Of a stretch of DNA of 11,159 bases, positions 1 through 6,702 are shown in pieces. The notes below the pieces were generated by a model. That model did not search any database and was not told the origin of the DNA. It saw only the letters and a list, made by a program, of their open reading frames with translations. Made by a program: the position numbers and the translations under genes. The stretch's first letter is position 1. Each line of letters begins with the position of its first letter. This DNA comes from a virus (taxonomy: Duplodnaviria > Heunggongvirae > Uroviricota > Caudoviricetes): IMG/VR virus record IMGVR_UViG_2541047866_000002; one strand, written 5' to 3'.

Positions 1-94
1 AGCAGAAAAAGCTTATTATGCTTCCATCGGAAACGATGATCTGGCAGCCTGAGTTCACAGATAAAACACTCTCCAGGAAACCCGGGGCGGTTCA
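1..94 (+). mobile_element. 3' end of an IS629-like (IS3 family) insertion sequence: transposase OrfB C-terminal codons plus right terminal inverted repeat
   Basis: Bases 69-94 (ctctccaggaaacccggggcggttca) are the reverse complement of the element start at 11065-11090 (tgaaccgccccgggaatcctggagac) with 3 mismatches over 26 bp, and end in the IS3-family terminal CA. The termini match what I remember of IS629/IS1203-type elements. Confidence 0.8.
2..52 (+). CDS. IS3-family transposase OrfB, C-terminal fragment (5' partial, gene continues upstream of the window)
   Basis: Frame 2 reads AEKAYYASIGNDDLAA then TGA at 50-52, open to the window edge, immediately followed by the terminal inverted repeat. 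Confidence 0.6.
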   Translation, partial: AEKAYYASIGNDDLAA

Positions 95-328
95 GAGTAG
101 CTTACGAAGCTTACCATCAGCGGCAACCATGTTCATATGAACACAGTTGAATTTGCTAATCTGCTTCATGAGTTTTGTTTGCTGCGTTGACCAGCTCATT
201 CCGAGGTTTTCAACGATTGGCTTCATCGCAACATATGCAACTCCGGCAGCCATGGCGGTGATAATTTGCTGACCGTTGAATGGCACGTAAGAGGTGTTCA
301 CTGCTTCTAAAATTGCTATACTATTCAT
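95..328 (-). pseudogene. ant: Antirepressor Ant-like gene (AntA/BRO-N type N-terminal domain), 3'-truncated by the IS insertion
   Basis: ATG at 328-326 opens [43 protein letters not shown]..., about 78 native codons. The reading frame runs straight into the IS terminus and its stop codon (94-92, TGA) is supplied by the IS end TGAACC. It lies downstream of an Arc-like gene as in P22 immI. The GTG at 394 of the ORF track is rejected as start. Confidence 0.6.
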
Positions 329-400
329 GTTGGTTTTTCTCCACGGATTTACCGACAACCGAAGCCCTGACTGTTCCAGCAGTTGGGGCTTCACTGTTTT
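329..400 (+). ncRNA. Candidate sar-like antisense RNA covering the ant ribosome-binding region
   Basis: Extended -10 element TGcTATACT at 314-322 on the plus strand (inside the ant 5' end, antisense). A stem-loop at 361-392 (gaagccc...gggcttc, 7-bp stem with an internal ctg/cag sub-stem) is followed by a T-rich tract at 393-410. Predicted transcript is about 70 nt, antisense to the ant leader. P22 encodes a small sar RNA in the equivalent position. Confidence 0.3.
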
Positions 401-560
401 GATTTCTTTGCCGCATCAAGCATCACTTCTGAAAACGTGCGCTTGCCACTGAATACTCTTTCTCTTCTCAATTTTTCGTTCGTGCCAAATGATTCGCCAT
501 GAACAAAATTTGGTCTTAAAATGGTAATCGCAATCTCTTTGACTACTGCATCCAAGCGAA

Positions 561-713
561 TCACACCGTTACCCCCTCTCTCTTCAGGCTGTCTATCAGG
601 CGCTTGATAACCTCTGAGTTAAACGACCTGCACTCTTCCTTTGCCCTGCTACCGATAGCATCCTTTAACGACTGCGGCATCCTTACCAAAATCTTACTTA
701 TTTCTTTCTCCAT
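561..713 (-). CDS. arc: Arc-like ribbon-helix-helix repressor (50 aa)
   Basis: ATG at 713-711 preceded by GGAGG with a 5-nt spacer. The product MEKEISKILVRMPQSLKDAIGSRAKEECRSFNSEVIKRLIDSLKREGVTV resembles P22 Arc (...ENGRSVNSEIYQRVMESFKKEG...). It is divergent from an Mnt-like gene. The TTG at 749 is rejected as start. Confidence 0.8.
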   Translation of the reverse strand: MEKEISKILVRMPQSLKDAIGSRAKEECRSFNSEVIKRLIDSLKREGVTV

Positions 714-827
714 GTTACCCTCCACGCAAACAACTCTTTTCGAATACAAAAGATAGCAAAGTGAGTATATCTAGTCAAAATTTTTTTGCATACACTTTGC
801 TATCAAATTGAATACCAAAGGTGTTAT
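714..827. promoter_or_regulatory. Divergent arc / mnt promoter-operator region with a perfect 12-bp inverted repeat
   Basis: gatagcaaagtg at 752-763 and its exact reverse complement cactttgctatc at 793-804, 29 bp apart. On the minus strand -35 TTGACT (plus 773-778), a 17-bp spacer and -10 TATCTT (plus 750-755) lie upstream of arc, with one repeat copy in the spacer and overlapping the -10. On the plus strand a TTGCAT -35-like hexamer (786-791) sits just 5' of the other copy; the plus-strand -10 is unclear. Confidence 0.55.
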
Positions 828-1076
828 ATGGCAAAGGGTGTGTCAATTTCTCCAACTACGGTAAGAATCCCTGAATCTTTACGCGAGGCTCTTGCTGTCA
901 GAGCATCAAAAAATGGTCGCTCTGTTAACTCCGAGATCGTCATGATTTTGCAAGCCGCGATTGATGAAGATAGGTCGCCAAAGTCAGTTGAGTCATTTGC
1001 TCAGCAAGAAGCTGATAAATTCAAAGAGGCGCTACTTGAGACGCTAAAGACCATGTATGCTAAGGATGAAAAATAA
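828..1076 (+). CDS. mnt: Mnt-like ribbon-helix-helix repressor (82 aa)
   Basis: ATG at 828. The product MAKGVSISPTTVRIPESLREALAVRASKNGRSVNSEIVMILQAA...KFKEALLETLKTMYAKDEK resembles P22 Mnt along its length (GRSMNSELLQIVQDAL ... KKMVFDTLKDLYKK). It is divergent from arc as in immI. The stop TAA at 1074-1076 overlaps the next ATG (TAATG). Confidence 0.8.
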   Translation: MAKGVSISPTTVRIPESLREALAVRASKNGRSVNSEIVMILQAAIDEDRSPKSVESFAQQEADKFKEALLETLKTMYAKDEK

Positions 1077-1612
1077 TGCTGCACACAATTCATTTCTTAT
1101 GCCCTGTTAACACTGCCACTGTTGGGCAACTTCAGAACCACTGTCTCACCGCATTATCTCAAGGCGCAACTGAATTAAATATCCATATATCAAGTCAGGG
1201 AGGGGAAACTGCTGCTGGCTTTACTGCGTATAACTTTCTTAAGTCACTCCCTGTTACCGTTAGAACTCACAACATAAGCAATGTTGAATCCATAGCTAAT
1301 ATCGTTTTCCTGGCTGGCTCAGAACGTTTCGCAAACCCATTATCAAGATTCCTGTTACATCCTCTATTATGGTGCTTTGCCTCCCCAGCCGCCGACCATG
1401 CCAGATTGAGAGAGTACGGGAAATGCCTCGATAACGATCTTGATCGCTTCGTTGAGACGTTCAATATCGACATCGGAACCCATATTAGGTGGGCATCCCT
1501 GATAGCAGACTCGACCATTTTGGATGCTAACAAGGCTCTTGAGCATGGCATAATTAATTCCATAAAAACTGCAAGGCTGGCATCCAATCAGGCAAACTGG
1601 TGGGTTGTTTGA
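1076..1612 (+). CDS. ClpP-fold (S14-like) serine peptidase, short stand-alone form (178 aa)
   Basis: Start overlaps the mnt stop (TAATG). ISSQGGETAAGFTAYNFL aligns by eye to ClpP INSPGGVITAGMSIYDTM; NVESIANIVFLAGSERFANPLSRFLLHPL to [32 protein letters not shown]; the C-terminal ILDANKALEHGIINSI to FLSAPEAVEYGLVDSI. Candidate Ser (ESIA), His (LLHP) and Asp (IADSTILD) residues are present. Family assignment is from memory, not a search. Confidence 0.6.
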   Translation: MLHTIHFLCPVNTATVGQLQNHCLTALSQGATELNIHISSQGGETAAGFTAYNFLKSLPVTVRTHNISNVESIANIVFLAGSERFANPLSRFLLHPLLWCFASPAADHARLREYGKCLDNDLDRFVETFNIDIGTHIRWASLIADSTILDANKALEHGIINSIKTARLASNQANWWVV

Positions 1613-1630
1613 TGGGTAAATCATGATTAC

Positions 1631-1662
1631 TCCTTATAAAAAACCCACCTGACGGTGGGTTT
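1631..1662. terminator. Stem-loop terminator between the convergent ClpP-like and YafO-like genes
   Basis: aaacccacc-tgac-ggtgggttt at 1641-1662 (9-bp perfect stem, 4-nt loop). On the minus strand it is followed by TTTTTATAAGGAG (plus 1631-1640), a canonical intrinsic terminator for the minus-strand cassette. On the plus strand the downstream T-tract is weak. Confidence 0.55.
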
Positions 1663-2110
1663 AGTCAAACATAGTGTTTCTAAAGTCTCTCGCATACCCT
1701 GCTAACACTCTCATTCTATTATGATTGTTAGCAGACATGTGAGCTACAGGATGAAAAAGAGCAATCAATGAATACCTGTTCTCATCAAAAAGATTTTGTG
1801 CATAAACGAGAGCGGTATTGGATGTTTTATGCCACTGCAACTTTTGCGGTGTGCTGATATCTGTGCCATTTTTTATTGGCTCAAATTTATTTTCACCAAT
1901 TGCTAAATGAAGGTGCATAAGGCCTGCATCTTCAATATCAGGAGGTCGATGATAAGAGGTGTCTCTGCCAAAATAGCTGGGCAACGTTCCCGTAGACTTG
2001 TAGATGATAAAATCATCTACAAGTGTTTGTTTTAAATCAGGAAACTCAACAAAAACCGGGGAGAAAAAATAGTCAAAACTATCCTGATTATATTCCACGG
2101 TTACTTGCAT
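1661..2110 (-). CDS. YafO-family toxin-like protein (149 aa)
   Basis: ATG at 2110-2108 with GAGGT 5 nt upstream, located inside the 3' end of the preceding gene. The product aligns by eye with E. coli YafO as I remember it: DFIIYKSTGTLPSYFGRD / DFISYKRDGVLPDTFGRD; HLHLAIGENKF / HIHLANENNPF; ALVYAQNLFDE...LIALFHPVAH / HLVYCQGAFDE...LIAILKPEPH; and a C-terminal N..M......A..FR pattern. Confidence 0.7.
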   Translation of the reverse strand: MQVTVEYNQDSFDYFFSPVFVEFPDLKQTLVDDFIIYKSTGTLPSYFGRDTSYHRPPDIEDAGLMHLHLAIGENKFEPIKNGTDISTPQKLQWHKTSNTALVYAQNLFDENRYSLIALFHPVAHMSANNHNRMRVLAGYARDFRNTMFD

Positions 2111-2118
2111 GTTTTACC

Positions 2119-2685
2119 TCAGTGGAAGTTACCAGAGTGAAACACACGAGTCCCGTGCTCAGCAAGCGCACGCAAACCAGCCATATCTACGGAACTATCA
2201 AAAACAACCGGAACACATGAGCGTTGTTTAATAAGACTATTCAGGTTGGTTACGGCAGATCTGGCATCAGCAACAACGATATAGATATCTCTTGCGATCT
2301 CTTTAAAATCAGCAGAAGCTTCTTTGAATACCGATTTCATTGCCCCTTCAAGTCCTCTCAATTGATGCTCTATCAATCGAGACTTTTCTGGTTCAATGAT
2401 AGACAACACATTGTCTACATTCTCATCGGTAGCGTTTGCAAGAACACGATAAGCGTATTTCAGCATTCGAGACAATTCTTTAATCGAAGACACCGCCTCA
2501 TGAAGCTCATCATTAGCCCGTTCACTGCTGAATGAGGATTGATGGTAAGCGTGCTGAACGTTATCAGTAACAACCACCTCACAACTGAACGCAGAAGCTT
2601 GCTGTAATAGCAAACCTATTGCGACTCCAGCTTTGGCAGCGTTCAAGCTAAACATTTCATCAATCCCATTAGTCTCATTGCTCAT
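2119..2685 (-). CDS. Hypothetical protein (188 aa), upstream partner of the YafO-like gene (antitoxin position)
   Basis: ATG at 2685-2683 preceded by AAGGAGG with a 5-nt spacer. Its stop TGA at 2121-2119 lies 8 nt before the YafO-like start. No motif I recognise (no obvious RHH/HTH). The longer ORF start at 2715 is rejected because it lacks an RBS. Confidence 0.6.
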   Translation of the reverse strand: MSNETNGIDEMFSLNAAKAGVAIGLLLQQASAFSCEVVVTDNVQHAYHQSSFSSERANDELHEAVSSIKELSRMLKYAYRVLANATDENVDNVLSIIEPEKSRLIEHQLRGLEGAMKSVFKEASADFKEIARDIYIVVADARSAVTNLNSLIKQRSCVPVVFDSSVDMAGLRALAEHGTRVFHSGNFH

Positions 2686-2860
2686 ACAAACCTCCTTCTT
2701 ATCGGAGATTATCAATAGCTATGCATCCATTGAATACACGCTATGCGCAATAAGTTTACGTCACGTGATATCATTATGCAACCACCGTTCTATCACCGAC
2801 TAACTTTACTCCCACTCCTATACATCATCTGGTATCCTGCGCAAAACTAAGGAGGTTGGT
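2686..2860. promoter_or_regulatory. Divergent intergenic region between the 188-aa gene and the membrane-protein gene, with candidate promoter and palindrome
   Basis: On the minus strand TTGCAT (plus 2776-2781), a 17-nt spacer and TAAACT form a plausible sigma70-like promoter for the cassette. The spacer contains the 8-bp palindrome TCACGTGA (2761-2768). Promoter for the plus-strand gene not confidently placed. Confidence 0.35.
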
Positions 2861-3211
2861 GTGAATGCTCAGTCTGTCATCATGGTTTTCCTTGGGCTGA
2901 TTGTCGCAAAACTATATCCAGACTGGTGGAAAGGGGCATTAGCTACTGTCGCCATCTATTTGCTTTTATCCATCGTTAAGCGATCACTCGCTGAGACCGT
3001 AAATCAAGCAAAACGTTTCTCATTTAAGAGTTTAATAAACTATGTTACTGGGCTTATTTTTTGCCTTTCAATTCTGATCGCTTCGGCTTTTTTGCCCGTA
3101 TCAATAGCTAATTTTTTTGGCGCACCATATGAGGTAGGTTATCTATTCTCTGTTTCCTGTCTTGCCATTGCTCTTCTTTACCTGTGGACGAGATCAAAGA
3201 ATAAAAATTAG
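2861..3211 (+). CDS. Small integral membrane protein with 4 predicted TM helices (116 aa), in the position and orientation of P22 sieA
   Basis: GTG at 2861 with GGAGG at 2851-2855 (5-nt spacer). Four hydrophobic stretches (VIMVFLGLIVAKLY, ALATVAIYLLLSIV, LIFCLSILIASAFLPVSIANFFG, YLFSVSCLAIALLYLW). Convergent with gene 16 and AT-rich. Confidence 0.6.
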   Translation: MNAQSVIMVFLGLIVAKLYPDWWKGALATVAIYLLLSIVKRSLAETVNQAKRFSFKSLINYVTGLIFCLSILIASAFLPVSIANFFGAPYEVGYLFSVSCLAIALLYLWTRSKNKN

Positions 3212-3223
3212 CCATCCGTGGCT
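3196..3223 (-). terminator. Short hairpin plus U-tract at the 3' end of the late operon (after gene 16)
   Basis: agcca-tccg-tggct at 3210-3223 (5-bp stem), followed on the minus strand by AATTTTTATTCTTT. The stem is short, so strength is uncertain. Confidence 0.35.
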
Positions 3224-3228
3224 GCCAG

Positions 3229-5244
3229 TTATTGAGCTTCTTTTTGTGATGCCTGTGCGACTCTGGTGAGCGATTGTGTGACCGTACTGATCGCTCTGTC
3301 ATATGCTGTGCTACCTTTTGGCGTATTTGCCAGACGTAACAAGGCATTTCGTATAACAGGGCTTTCGTATGCCTTCGCAGCTCCTCCTACGACACCAGCA
3401 GCAGGAACAACAAACGCAGCCGTTTTTAGCATCCCCGCTAATACTGCTGCGTTTATGATGCCACCACCAACTAACAATCCATAAAGCTGCTGACCATTTA
3501 AGTTTTGAACGTTCGCTTTTGCCGCGTGTCTTGTATCGTTGAGGTATTTAATAACGCCGTCCAGTTCCTTTCCATGTACGCCTTTAAAGAAAGTTGCTGA
3601 TTGCTTCCTGTTCCGGTGTAACGCATTAATAAACTTTTCAACACTAATATTTCCAGACGGATCAGTCGCCTTATCTACAGCATTCTGAACTATGGCTGCT
3701 CGTGCGTTTTGCCTACCATTGTCATCCAGAAGCCTGTAAAGCTGAGAACGTTCTGATGGGTTTTGGCTAAAAACGAGTTTTGTTACATCCTCAGGTGTAG
3801 CCTTGCCGCTGGCTATTGCCTTTTGAACGCGCGTTCTTCCCATCATGTCATTGAATCTAGCCCATGAGCGATCAACCCTAGACATATTGGCAGCTTCTTC
3901 TGAGCCTAGTTTTTGGGATACTGCTTTTTTCATATCCGCTGTATATGCCTTGTAGACAATATCGCTGGCTTTCTGGAGCGTGTCTTTATCAACAGTCTCG
4001 TTTGAATTCATGAACCGCTTTCGAAGGTCAGTTCTGTTTTCTCTCGCCAGACGCAGGTCATTGGGTCCGCTGGTGATATCGTCTTTAAATTGCTGCAAGA
4101 CTTTTACCGCGGCTCTATCCTGAGATTTGCCCGGGCGGCTTAACACGGCAATCTGATTGTCGATAGCTTTTACCGTGTTTGAGAGATCGACAGGGGTATC
4201 CCCCATAGCGTCAATTATGCGGTTATATCGCTTTCCTGCTGCCTCAATGAATTTTTGTTGCCCTTTAGTCGCAGATTCATAAAGCTGTTTATCAGAAATG
4301 CCACCCAGACCATCGCTAAATGTTCTGACTAAATTTTCTCGTGCTTGTTGTTGATTCAGCCGATTCTTACCGGTTCCAAAAAAAGGAACTCTTTCGCCTA
4401 ATGTCTGAGCCTGACTCTGCATAAAGGTTTTATCTTTCAGCGTGTCACTGGTCATTAACGGCAGGTTTCTTTCCGACGCAAAATCGACAGCAGCCTTTGC
4501 TTCCGGTGACATCTCACCGCGAACAGCCCTGGAAACCGCACTAACTGTATTTTCCAGCCCCTTGCCAACACCACCAATGCCAGCAGAAATTACCGTTTGT
4601 GCAGGATCAATATCTTCTCCGCCAGCAAGGCTGGTGCCACCCTGTAGTGCTAAATCTGTAGCAGCTGATTTCCCTATGGCACCAAGCACCGTTCCAGCCC
4701 TGCCCGCTGGTGTGAACGCTAACGCATTAGCAAGAAACGAAGTCAGGTCTTGCGGTGATAAACCTGGCTTGTTCAGGGCATAATCACCGGATGGCAGGGA
4801 AACGATAGTGTTACCCTTCTCATCCTGCCTTAATTTCGCCCCCATACTCTGAAGAATCTTTTCCTGAGACGCGTCGGAGCCGAAAAGTTGAGACCATCCA
4901 GCCTTCAGGGCATCCATGCTTAGTGAGTTCAACTCAGGGGCAGCCCCAACATTTTGCAGTCTCTCCATTTCTGGTGTCATTCGGCTTTCACCGGTAACGG
5001 CATCGCGCATTGCAGCACCTAAAACAGCCCCTTGCTCAGCAGAGCGATCTAGTCCTTCCTTCTGCTGAGTGGCAAGCTGTGCATATCCTGATGCAAGTGA
5101 GTTGTCTGCTGGCGATTGCTGAACACCTTGTTGTGTTGGCGCTGACTGACCAGCAAAATACTCATCAATGGCGGACCCAATATCTTCCGTGCTCGTACCA
5201 TCAGGAAAGGTAAATGTCTTACCATTTGCAGTTACTTTCATCAT
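3229..5244 (-). CDS. Ejection (injection) protein, P22 gene 16-like
   Basis: 671-codon ORF, third of three consecutive genes after a gp7-like gene as in P22 (7-20-16). Starts [16 protein letters not shown]... at tandem ATGs (5244 and 5241) that overlap the gene 20 stop (ATGATGA); the true start may be 5241. Gly/Ala-rich. Confidence 0.75.
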
Positions 5245-6692
5245 TCCACCGTAAATTGAATGCCTGATTTTGACGTGTAGCTACCTCCTGCTGATTGCTG
5301 AGTAGCTGGCTGTTGCCTTGATGATTTCTTCCCGCCATTACCAACATTAACGTTATATTGCTGGTTGTAATTGTCGGTATATTGCTGAATGTCGCGCATT
5401 GATTGTTGCAGCGCTTCAGGACTTGAGAAATCAGGCTTTGGCATACCCTGAAAATACCTATTGGCCTCTGCTTCGGTGTTGATGCCAGATGCCCCCATAT
5501 CTCGGGCTGCTGCAATCCCCTGATTTTGCATTTTGCCCATGATTCGCTGTGCAGCGTTGTATAGCCTCCTCTCCTCAACACCAGATGCCCTGCTACGAAT
5601 ATCTGCACCAAGAGCAAAAGAACCTGAAGAACCTGTAATACCTGTCATGAAGCCAAGATCGTCAATTGATGCGCCAGAAATTGCATCAAGATCTTTCTTC
5701 ATTTCGTAATTCTGTGCATTAGCTGCCGATGTAGCCGGAGCAGCAATAGAACTGGCGGGGACGCGAATCATATTGCCCTCGTTGTCTATTCCTTCGTAGA
5801 ACGCATTAGCACCAGCGCCGTGAAGCTTCCTACCAACCGTTACCGTTCTGCCATCTGCCAGTTGCACAACATTCTCCCCGCCAGCATCAGGACGACCTCG
5901 AACACGAAGATATGTCTTTTGTTGCTCTGGAGACAGGCTGTTGAAATATTGATATTCTTTAACAGATGCAGGAACAGCACCTCCAGCAGTGCGCAGGGAG
6001 TTTTCACGGCTAACAGCAATGCTTTGCGCCTTTAAACCTTCCCCAGCTTTATTGCTGCGAATCGTCTCTGCCAACTTGCCACGCTCAATATCCCGACCTT
6101 CCATTTGATCTTTGATATCGAAATACTTCTCATGACCGAGAGAAAATAGTGCCAGATTACCTGCGAAGTGCTGGAAGCCCTGCGGGTCATTAACCTGCAT
6201 TTCCGCAATAGTTTCTGGAGGGATACCTAAACGACGCATCTCCTTTTCGTTATCCATCATGAACCTGCCAAATGCACCCGGACCAAGCGACGAAGCGACC
6301 TGAGCCTTAAGCGCCAGATTGCCAAAATCATCCCGCTGGGCGTCATCGACATACCCCATGCCTTTACGGACTTCCTCAAACTCTTCGGGGAATGCTGTAA
6401 TAAGATTACGCATCTGCTCCCTGTCGCCGGACGCATAAGCATCCGCATAACCTTTCTGGAATGCCGCTTTACGCTCCTGCTTTTGCTGCTGCTTATAAAT
6501 ATCAGCAACTCCAGCCAGACCACGAAGACCTGTCAGAGCAACGTTATTTGCACCTGATCGAGCCAGTTCATTGTTTTCGCGGATCAGACCAAGCGTTGCG
6601 TTAATGTCGCTTGCCTTTGGCGCATTCTCATTTTGCGTACCGATGCCAGCCAGAAACCCACCAGAATTAATACCCTGTTGCCACGTAGCCAT
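5241..6692 (-). CDS. Ejection (injection) protein, P22 gene 20-like
   Basis: 483 aa (P22 gp20 is 471 aa as I recall). ATG at 6692 preceded by AAGGGG. Synteny between the gene 7- and gene 16-like ORFs. Confidence 0.75.
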
Positions 6693-6702
6693 TGATTACC
6701 CC

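Follow-up and report, generated by a model that had tools for sequence, protein, structure and literature searches.

Arc and Mnt of phage P22 are textbook models of DNA recognition by β-ribbons. In P22, a single 21-bp operator made of two adjacent inverted subsites serves two overlapping promoters, Pant and Pmnt, which stand face to face so that each −10 lies on the −35 of the other. The P22 Mnt operator is the 17-bp palindrome AGGTCCACCGTGGACCT over the Pant transcription start, which is also visible in the P22 alignment. In the operators of CopG, omega, ParG and AmrZ, short and partly degenerate boxes recur at intervals of about one helical turn, in both orientations (reviewed in PMC3413123 and PMC3325190). 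The Mnt-type C-terminal region makes P22 Mnt tetrameric (PMC3325190). Study of immI has so far been confined to the P22 version, and the APEC-1 prophage is listed among the "ant moron" variants (PMC2629481). A literature search for operators of the immI type described here found no paper; the papers on LF82 "Gally" and Kapi1 deal with other immI variants.

The DNA analysed here (11,159 nt, referred to as the window) carries the immI (mnt-arc-sar-ant) region, or "ant moron", of a P22-like E. coli prophage. The gap between its divergent arc-like and mnt-like genes, 114 nt against 90 nt in P22, holds a perfect 12-bp inverted repeat. The two arms of this repeat seem to mark where two mirror-image operators are best conserved; the repressor that binds them is probably the Mnt-like one, and the probability of this reading is put at roughly 0.55. 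Like the P22/epsilon34 arc operator, the left arm lies in the region of the arc/ant promoter spacer, between divergent ribbon-helix-helix genes and with sar and ant downstream. Its homologue by position is that operator's left subsite, with agreement at 9 of the 12 positions of the arm. A first-pass annotation, made from the letters only, had held that the sequence differs from the P22 operators. This is half true, in that the arc/ant promoter (750–778) aligns in register with the annotated arcO/Pmnt/Pant of epsilon34 at 21 of 29 positions, against 17 of 29 at best elsewhere in the window. The layout is different: the inverted copy is 29 nt away in place of an adjacent subsite, and an overlap of promoters like that of Pant and Pmnt is not found. 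An A4T7 tract absent from P22 is present, about 12 A/T-rich bases part GTCAA from TACACT, which abut in P22, and the mnt promoter at the P22 position (TTGAGA-17-TATCAT) is not found in the window.

The sites proposed here resemble the P22 Mnt operator in being mirror-image half-sites for a tetrameric Mnt-type repressor that would silence the antirepressor promoter in the lysogen. In addition, the CAC-N-GTG boxes of sister immI types resemble the CCAC-N-GTGG centre of the P22 Mnt site. The box in the window is asymmetric (CAAAGTG), and its mirror copies are 41 bp apart from centre to centre, whereas the P22 Mnt half-sites are adjacent. The position of the P22 Mnt site itself (727–743 in the window) shows no conserved palindrome and is variable among close relatives. 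As with CopG, omega, ParG and AmrZ, the boxes are short, repeated and in both orientations. Those systems usually involve one protein and one promoter, whereas two paralogous repressors share an 80-bp divergent block in the window. The reader favoured by the comparative data would be Mnt, in contrast to Arc at the P22 arc operator. The immI locus here is not a new kind of system and its function is ordinary; in its box sequence and its split layout of mirror images, it represents an unstudied variant of the P22 immI switch.

The immI region and its genes

Positions 93–11065 are 100% identical to a chromosomal P22-like prophage in E. coli APEC O1, S88, DSM 30083 and others, and the full length of the window is matched in two strains, FY26 and NCTC11151. 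The induced phage phiv205-1 (genus Lederbergvirus) matches positions 93–1662 with 98.9% identity. The region is present as a single copy in 97 of 5,426 complete E. coli genomes (about 2%), including APEC O1, S88 and the type strain, and had no match in the plasmid collection. The RefSeq order in APEC O1 is tailspike, Ant, 57-aa ORF, "Arc family" gene, divergent "Arc family" gene, ClpP-like gene, YafO-family toxin, and DNA-ejection/head genes. In this record and in that of phiv205-1, the immI module is placed between the DNA-ejection genes and the tailspike gene of the P22-like virion cluster.

The two genes that flank the gap had been taken as homologues of arc and mnt, and the searches agree with this assignment: both products belong to PF03869, and among solved structures their closest relatives are P22 Arc and P22 Mnt, respectively (Table 1). 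The Arc-like protein is 39% identical to P22 Arc. The Mnt-like protein shares 36% identity with P22 Mnt over residues 11–79, with the Mnt-like C-terminal region included. By homology, both can be regarded as bona fide members of the Arc/Mnt family. The sar homologue overlies the ant start, and the P22 antisense control layer is kept in the E. coli prophage. APEC O1 and phage phiv205-1 have an intact ant gene of 903 nt. Matches to intact prophages begin at position 93, and the genomes that match the full window carry IS3-family transposases at this place; this means that ant is interrupted in the window copy. As a result, this copy may be a switch without its target.

Table 1. Positions of the genes and control elements of the immI region in the window
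Feature	Position	Strand	Remarks
ant antirepressor gene, 5' part	93–328	−	cut off at 92/93 by IS3-family element
sar antisense RNA gene	329–395	+	Rfam RF00262, 83.9 bits (gathering score 43), E = 2e-17
Arc-like ribbon-helix-helix repressor gene, 50 aa	561–713	−	Pfam PF03869, E = 5e-12; RefSeq annotation; PDB matches to Arc
Conserved control block	742–821		both arms, promoter core and flanking GAATAC boxes
Direct repeat copy 1, GAATACAAAAG	742–752	+	repeat finder; over predicted arc/ant transcription start
arc/ant promoter (Pant-like)	750–778	−	−35 TTGACT 778–773, 17-nt spacer, TG 758–757, −10 TATCTT 755–750
Left arm, GATAGCAAAGTG	752–763		distal part of proposed operator O_L (~752–771)
A4T7 tract (A 777–780, T 781–787), centre	779–787		invariant or nearly so in all immI groups
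TACACT, candidate mnt −10	791–796	+	invariant in every immI group; overlaps right arm
Right arm, CACTTTGCTATC	793–804		part of proposed operator O_R (~788–806)
Direct repeat copy 2, GAATACCAAAG	810–820	+	repeat finder; overlaps mnt ribosome-binding site (AAAGG 817–821)
Mnt-like ribbon-helix-helix repressor gene, 82 aa	828–1076	+	Pfam PF03869; best PDB match 1mnt

Between arc and ant, a 57-aa ORF without a Pfam match (391–564, minus strand) has a GTG start that overlaps the arc stop codon (GTGA); P22 has no gene here. At this place, relatives have other small ORFs (53, 66 and 73 aa; one with a ClpX-type zinc-finger match), which means that 391–564 is a variable slot inside the arc-ant operon. 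On the other side, a ClpP-like protease gene (1076–1612, plus strand; Pfam PF00574) starts on the mnt stop codon (TAATG) and is therefore probably co-transcribed with the lysogen-expressed repressor. Unrelated genes occupy its slot in other relatives. Further on, a YafO-family toxin gene (1661–2110, minus strand; PF13957, E = 3e-22) is preceded by a 198-aa ORF (2119–2715, minus strand) that has no Pfam match. These two may be toxin-antitoxin or defence cargo of the ant moron; HicA/DUF1902 pairs replace the YafO-family pair in some relatives.

The inverted repeat and its promoters

The 12-bp inverted repeat reported in the first-pass annotation was confirmed by reading of the sequence and by a repeat finder: GATAGCAAAGTG at 752–763 and CACTTTGCTATC at 793–804 are exact reverse complements (100%), and extension is possible at neither end. 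A perfect repeat of this kind was obtained in 0.05% of the dinucleotide shuffles of the 113-nt stretch 715–827. Dinucleotide shuffles of the whole window gave a mean of 0.06 such repeats per window (at least 12 nt, gap of at most 60 nt). Within the same limits, the window has a single other perfect inverted repeat, at 1996–2024. This is a 13-bp repeat (1996–2008 and 2012–2024) with a 3-nt loop (ACTTGTAGATGAT aaa ATCATCTACAAGT), and it lies inside the YafO-like coding sequence. A search of the window for a third copy of the arm with at most two mismatches gave none above chance. At the mnt start codon, ATGGCAAAGGGTGTG (828–842) is like the left arm at 11 of 14 positions and 80% complementary to 789–803. 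This partial copy was dismissed as a third copy because it is coding sequence, and its likeness to the left arm may be due to chance.

The minus-strand promoter upstream of arc, read earlier as TTGACT and TATCTT with 17-nt spacing, is present as described, and a TG element was found in addition. It was the sole consensus promoter in 400–1200 in the consensus scan, with a transcription start predicted near 741–745. In a weight-matrix scan, which is a crude model that recovers the known Pant and Pmnt of P22, the arc/ant promoter was at the same place in 12 of 12 immI regions, always with TGn and TAnnnT. The left arm had been placed between the −35 and the −10 of this promoter. It does overlap the promoter, but it spans about −9 to −20 and covers the distal spacer, the TG and four bases of the −10. 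The right arm is approximately 50–61 nt upstream of the arc/ant transcription start and 24–35 nt upstream of the mnt ATG. On the minus strand, the A4T7 tract reads A7TT directly upstream of the arc/ant −35; judging from this position, it might be a proximal UP-type element of the arc/ant promoter.

For mnt, TTGCAT (786–791) had been proposed as the −35 hexamer. This assignment could not be kept, as no acceptable −10 stands at 16–18 nt. The best pairing of TTGCAT/TTGAAT, at 16 nt, has a low score, and its start would fall in the mnt ribosome-binding site. Neither the consensus scan nor the weight matrix, applied to the 12 immI regions, gave a consistent plus-strand mnt promoter. The best guess for the mnt −10 is TACACT (Table 1), with which no good −35 pairs. 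TGcTATCAA (798–806) is another candidate for an mnt promoter element.

This second candidate belongs to a motif that both arms share, TG-C-TATC, which provides the TG and −10 of arc/ant on the minus strand and can be read as TGcTATCAA on the plus strand. The repeat could accordingly be thought of as two divergent promoters sharing an extended −10, with no repressor reading it. This is improbable for several reasons. TATCAA, as well as TATCAC and TAGCAA in the relatives, lacks the final T, and the weight matrix finds no consistent plus-strand promoter there. The −10 bases vary within the immI type of the window (GATA, GGTA). Furthermore, conservation and covariation are strongest in CAAAGTG/CACTTTG, at −14 to −20, a part that sigma-70 does not read in a base-specific way save for the TG, and in other immI types this part becomes CACNGTG along with the Mnt N-terminus.

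The arms are included in a conserved control block that contains several further short elements. The putative boxes are CAAAGTG centred at 760, CACTTTG centred at 796, CAAATTG at 804–810 (centre ~807) and CAAAGGTG at 816–823 (centre ~819). The three on the right side are approximately one helical turn apart. The arm centres are separated by 41 bp and the centres of the boxes within them by 36 bp, neither of which is a whole number of helical turns. The segment 764–773, next to the left arm, does not contain an inverted copy of this arm, and the two halves of 753–773 share only GATA...TATC. The block is bordered by the two direct repeats GAATAC(A/C)AAAG (742–752 and 810–820), which are kept in the Serratia, Klebsiella and Salmonella relatives. 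A third element resembling them, GCATAC, is located at 788–793. The direct repeats may be sites for the second repressor. Half-site decompositions of the CAC-N-GTG and GTGAT-ATCAC types and by GAATAC boxes were attempted. A clean split of the block into an Arc operator and an Mnt operator was dropped, since no decomposition is forced by the data.

Conservation and covariation of the arms

Relatives were drawn from IMG/VR, genomes, metagenomes and a large protein collection; a scan of genome contigs with a 5-sequence alignment gave 13 loci. The immI type of the window is represented by 19 distinct haplotypes from E. coli, Salmonella, Klebsiella, Serratia and metagenomes. The repeat pairs at 12 of 12 positions in three haplotypes, at 11 of 12 in 13, and at 10 of 12 in the remaining three. 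Variation is confined to arm positions 2 and 5 (753, 756 and 800) and one T762C change. The left core TA-N-CAAAGTG is found in 18 of the 19 haplotypes, the exception being the one with T762C. The right arm CACTTTG-N-TATC is kept in all group-1 haplotypes, with C or A at position 800. The Klebsiella, Salmonella and metagenomic relatives also retain the core TA-N-CAAAGTG / CACTTTG-N-TA. The perfect 12-mer of the window is a local accident on this conserved 10-of-12 core.

The arms are better conserved than their surroundings. In the Serratia marcescens prophage L103, the 80-bp block 742–821 is 93.8% identical to that of the window, versus 66% for the arc coding sequence, 71–72% for the mnt coding sequence and 52% for the arc leader; the left arm agrees at 12 of 12 positions and the right arm at 11 of 12. 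Among the E. coli haplotypes, polymorphic sites cluster outside this block. The non-coding block is under strong purifying selection. Loss of the repeats from relatives that keep the genes had been named as an observation that would count against operators. What is seen in E. coli, Salmonella, Klebsiella and Serratia is that the repeats are conserved, and better than the genes. It should be mentioned that the outer bases of the left arm double as the −10 of the arc/ant promoter, and part of the conservation is therefore due to RNA polymerase.

More distant relatives comprise at least five further immI types, which have the core AGTCAAA(A/T)TTTTTTTG and the gene order in common and differ in the N-termini of the repressors. 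A metagenome scan with Arc returned known immI types only, and an exact search of viral contigs for the core AGTCAAAATTTTTTTG gave no new type. The covariation of the arms was analysed in an ungapped alignment of 23 distinct sequences belonging to five or more immI types, in which the counts refer to sequences and independent events are few. The mirror relation of the arms is kept in 86.6% of cells, compared with 78.7 ± 1.3% in shuffles, and it falls to 61% or less when the partner arm is slid. The mirror columns 15/53 are A:T in the type of the window and C:G in most others. In 12 of the 23 sequences, the bases of the central column pair 16/52 are not complementary. Mirror covariation together with a free central column is consistent with half-sites read by a symmetric protein, and not with a stem. 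The earlier idea of a paired site is strengthened by these data, since distant immI types change both arms together at mirror positions.

The same alignment bears on the possibility that the repeat forms an RNA hairpin, serving as an attenuator or processing site on minus-strand read-through of the late operon toward the tailspike gene. A 12-bp stem is followed by UUUUGUAUU, a U run on the minus strand, and both strands fold at about −17 kcal/mol (z-scores of −3.1 and −4.5). However, the loop measures 29 nt, and the stem is rich in A/T, with 5 G:C pairs out of 12. Most haplotypes have an uncompensated mismatch in the stem (756/800, or 753, or 762). The non-complementary central pair described above, and the arms that are palindromic in themselves in other groups, are as expected of protein sites. 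A hairpin function is thus very improbable, clearly more so than the shared extended −10. A rho-independent terminator in particular was rejected on account of the 29-nt loop (criterion, 3–8 nt), the stem that is not G+C-rich and the uncompensated mismatches, and the terminator scan gave no intrinsic terminator in 400–1200.

In the other immI types each arm is itself a small palindrome, CAC-N-GTG. In several of them (L041, L042, L045, L107 and L105/L106), the control region is taken up by three or four ACAC-N-GTGT boxes of identical sequence. Arc and Mnt of these types have near-identical N-terminal ribbons (for example, APLGIRLP and SPMGIRVP). The pattern points to sites common to both repressors in these types.

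The reader of the arms and a model of control

Two pairs of related loci are informative about the repressor that reads the arms. In the first pair, the Arc ribbon is VVDCIVRMP in the Pectobacterium type and SRIVVRMP in the L207 type, and the N-terminus of Mnt is shared (…VRDI[AS]PYGVRMP). From the left arm through the right arm, these two differ at 1 nt, and the downstream genes are intact. In the second pair, the Arc proteins of the window type and the 611R6 type are 86% identical, with Lys7/Arg7 (K7R) as the sole difference in the ribbon. The N-termini of Mnt are very different, GVSISPTTVRIP in the window and VRDIAPYSVRMP in 611R6; the first 24 codons of mnt, with 48.6% identity at the DNA level, are the most divergent coding stretch. 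At each of the three aligned positions the boxes are different: CAAAGTG, CACTTTG and CAAAGGTG in the window correspond to CACCGTG, CACTGTG and CACGGTG in 611R6. Since the arms are the same across a change of Arc and different when the Mnt N-terminus is different, the Mnt-like protein is favoured as the reader.

A third locus, L204, is mixed. It combines a Lys-type Arc like that of the window with a 611R6-like Mnt. Its left arm, CATTGTG, is as predicted from Mnt, and its right arm, CAATTTG, shares TTG with the window. Thus the box type tracks the Mnt N-terminus in most comparisons, which represent few independent events and have L204 as a partial exception. The first-pass annotation had proposed operators for the ribbon-helix-helix repressors in general. 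The comparative data narrow this to putative sites for the Mnt-like rather than the Arc-like protein.

By contrast, the position of the left arm and its homology to the P22 arc operator speak for Arc. The arms might be Arc operators, the central operator of P22 having become two inverted copies, one per promoter, as the A/T tract drove the promoters apart. In lytic growth, the Arc-like protein would then shut off arc/ant and mnt, and the Mnt-like protein would bind at other places in the block, such as the GAATAC boxes (742–752 and 810–820). This is consistent with the in-register match of 750–778 to the 29-mer of epsilon34 arcO/Pant described above (21 of 29 positions; next best, 17), and the 17-nt spacer by itself matches epsilon34 at 11 of 17 positions. 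It is established that P22 Arc represses both promoters. In addition, the right-arm TTG is confined to the two groups that have Lys at the first position of the Arc ribbon, and GAATACAAAAG lies over the transcription start, where the P22 mnt operator lies. On the other hand, the arms and core are the same, bar 1 nt, despite the ribbons VVDCIVRMP and SRIVVRMP, and they differ between the window and 611R6 though Arc is 86% identical. Furthermore, 764–773 is not an inverted left arm, and a two-subsite 21-bp operator of the P22 style is absent. Arc operators are therefore a tentative alternative, less likely than sites for the Mnt-like protein though by some way the most serious of the rival readings.

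The arms are probable operators, a reading with strong comparative support. For sites of the Mnt-like protein, we infer protein binding, the identity of the binder and the regulatory outcome as follows. O_L would cover the spacer, TG and −10 of the strong arc/ant promoter; O_R would be located past the −35 and the A/T tract, over the region that must contain the start of mnt transcription. At each site, the ribbon-helix-helix repressor encoded next door would insert its β-ribbon into the major groove. Conservation of the C-terminal region makes it probable that the Mnt-like repressor forms a tetramer, as P22 Mnt does. Occupation of O_L would block RNA polymerase at the −10/TG, so that arc-ant, and with it the antirepressor, is off in the lysogen. 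O_R overlaps both TACACT and the beginning of the mnt message, and its occupation would lead to negative feedback on mnt. The Arc-like protein may bind at these boxes too, or at ones that overlap them.

A single Mnt-like tetramer might also bind both arms, approximately four turns apart, as a split operator; in P22, the two DNA-binding dimers of the tetramer occupy neighbouring half-sites of the 17-bp operator. It would clamp the −35 of the antirepressor promoter and the A/T tract in a very tight loop assisted by the A-tract. If this were true, a single complex would silence ant and set the level of mnt, which would be a new mode for a ribbon-helix-helix tetramer. The spacing is non-integral in helical turns, and bridging of the arms by one tetramer does not seem to be clearly favoured; it is considered unlikely, at about the same level as the shared extended −10 or slightly above it.

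Across E. coli, Salmonella, Klebsiella and Serratia, the locus provides related repressor/operator pairs in a natural series. In this series, a few changes in the N-terminus of Mnt go with the change from CAC to CAA in every box, and the promoter layout is rebuilt. The series is a ready-made test set for the specificity rules of ribbon-helix-helix proteins and for the evolution of antirepressor control. One member, L288 from E. coli HH97, seems to be a decaying copy of the switch: in its locus (530–620), the mnt frame is broken soon after the start, and the arms are kept.
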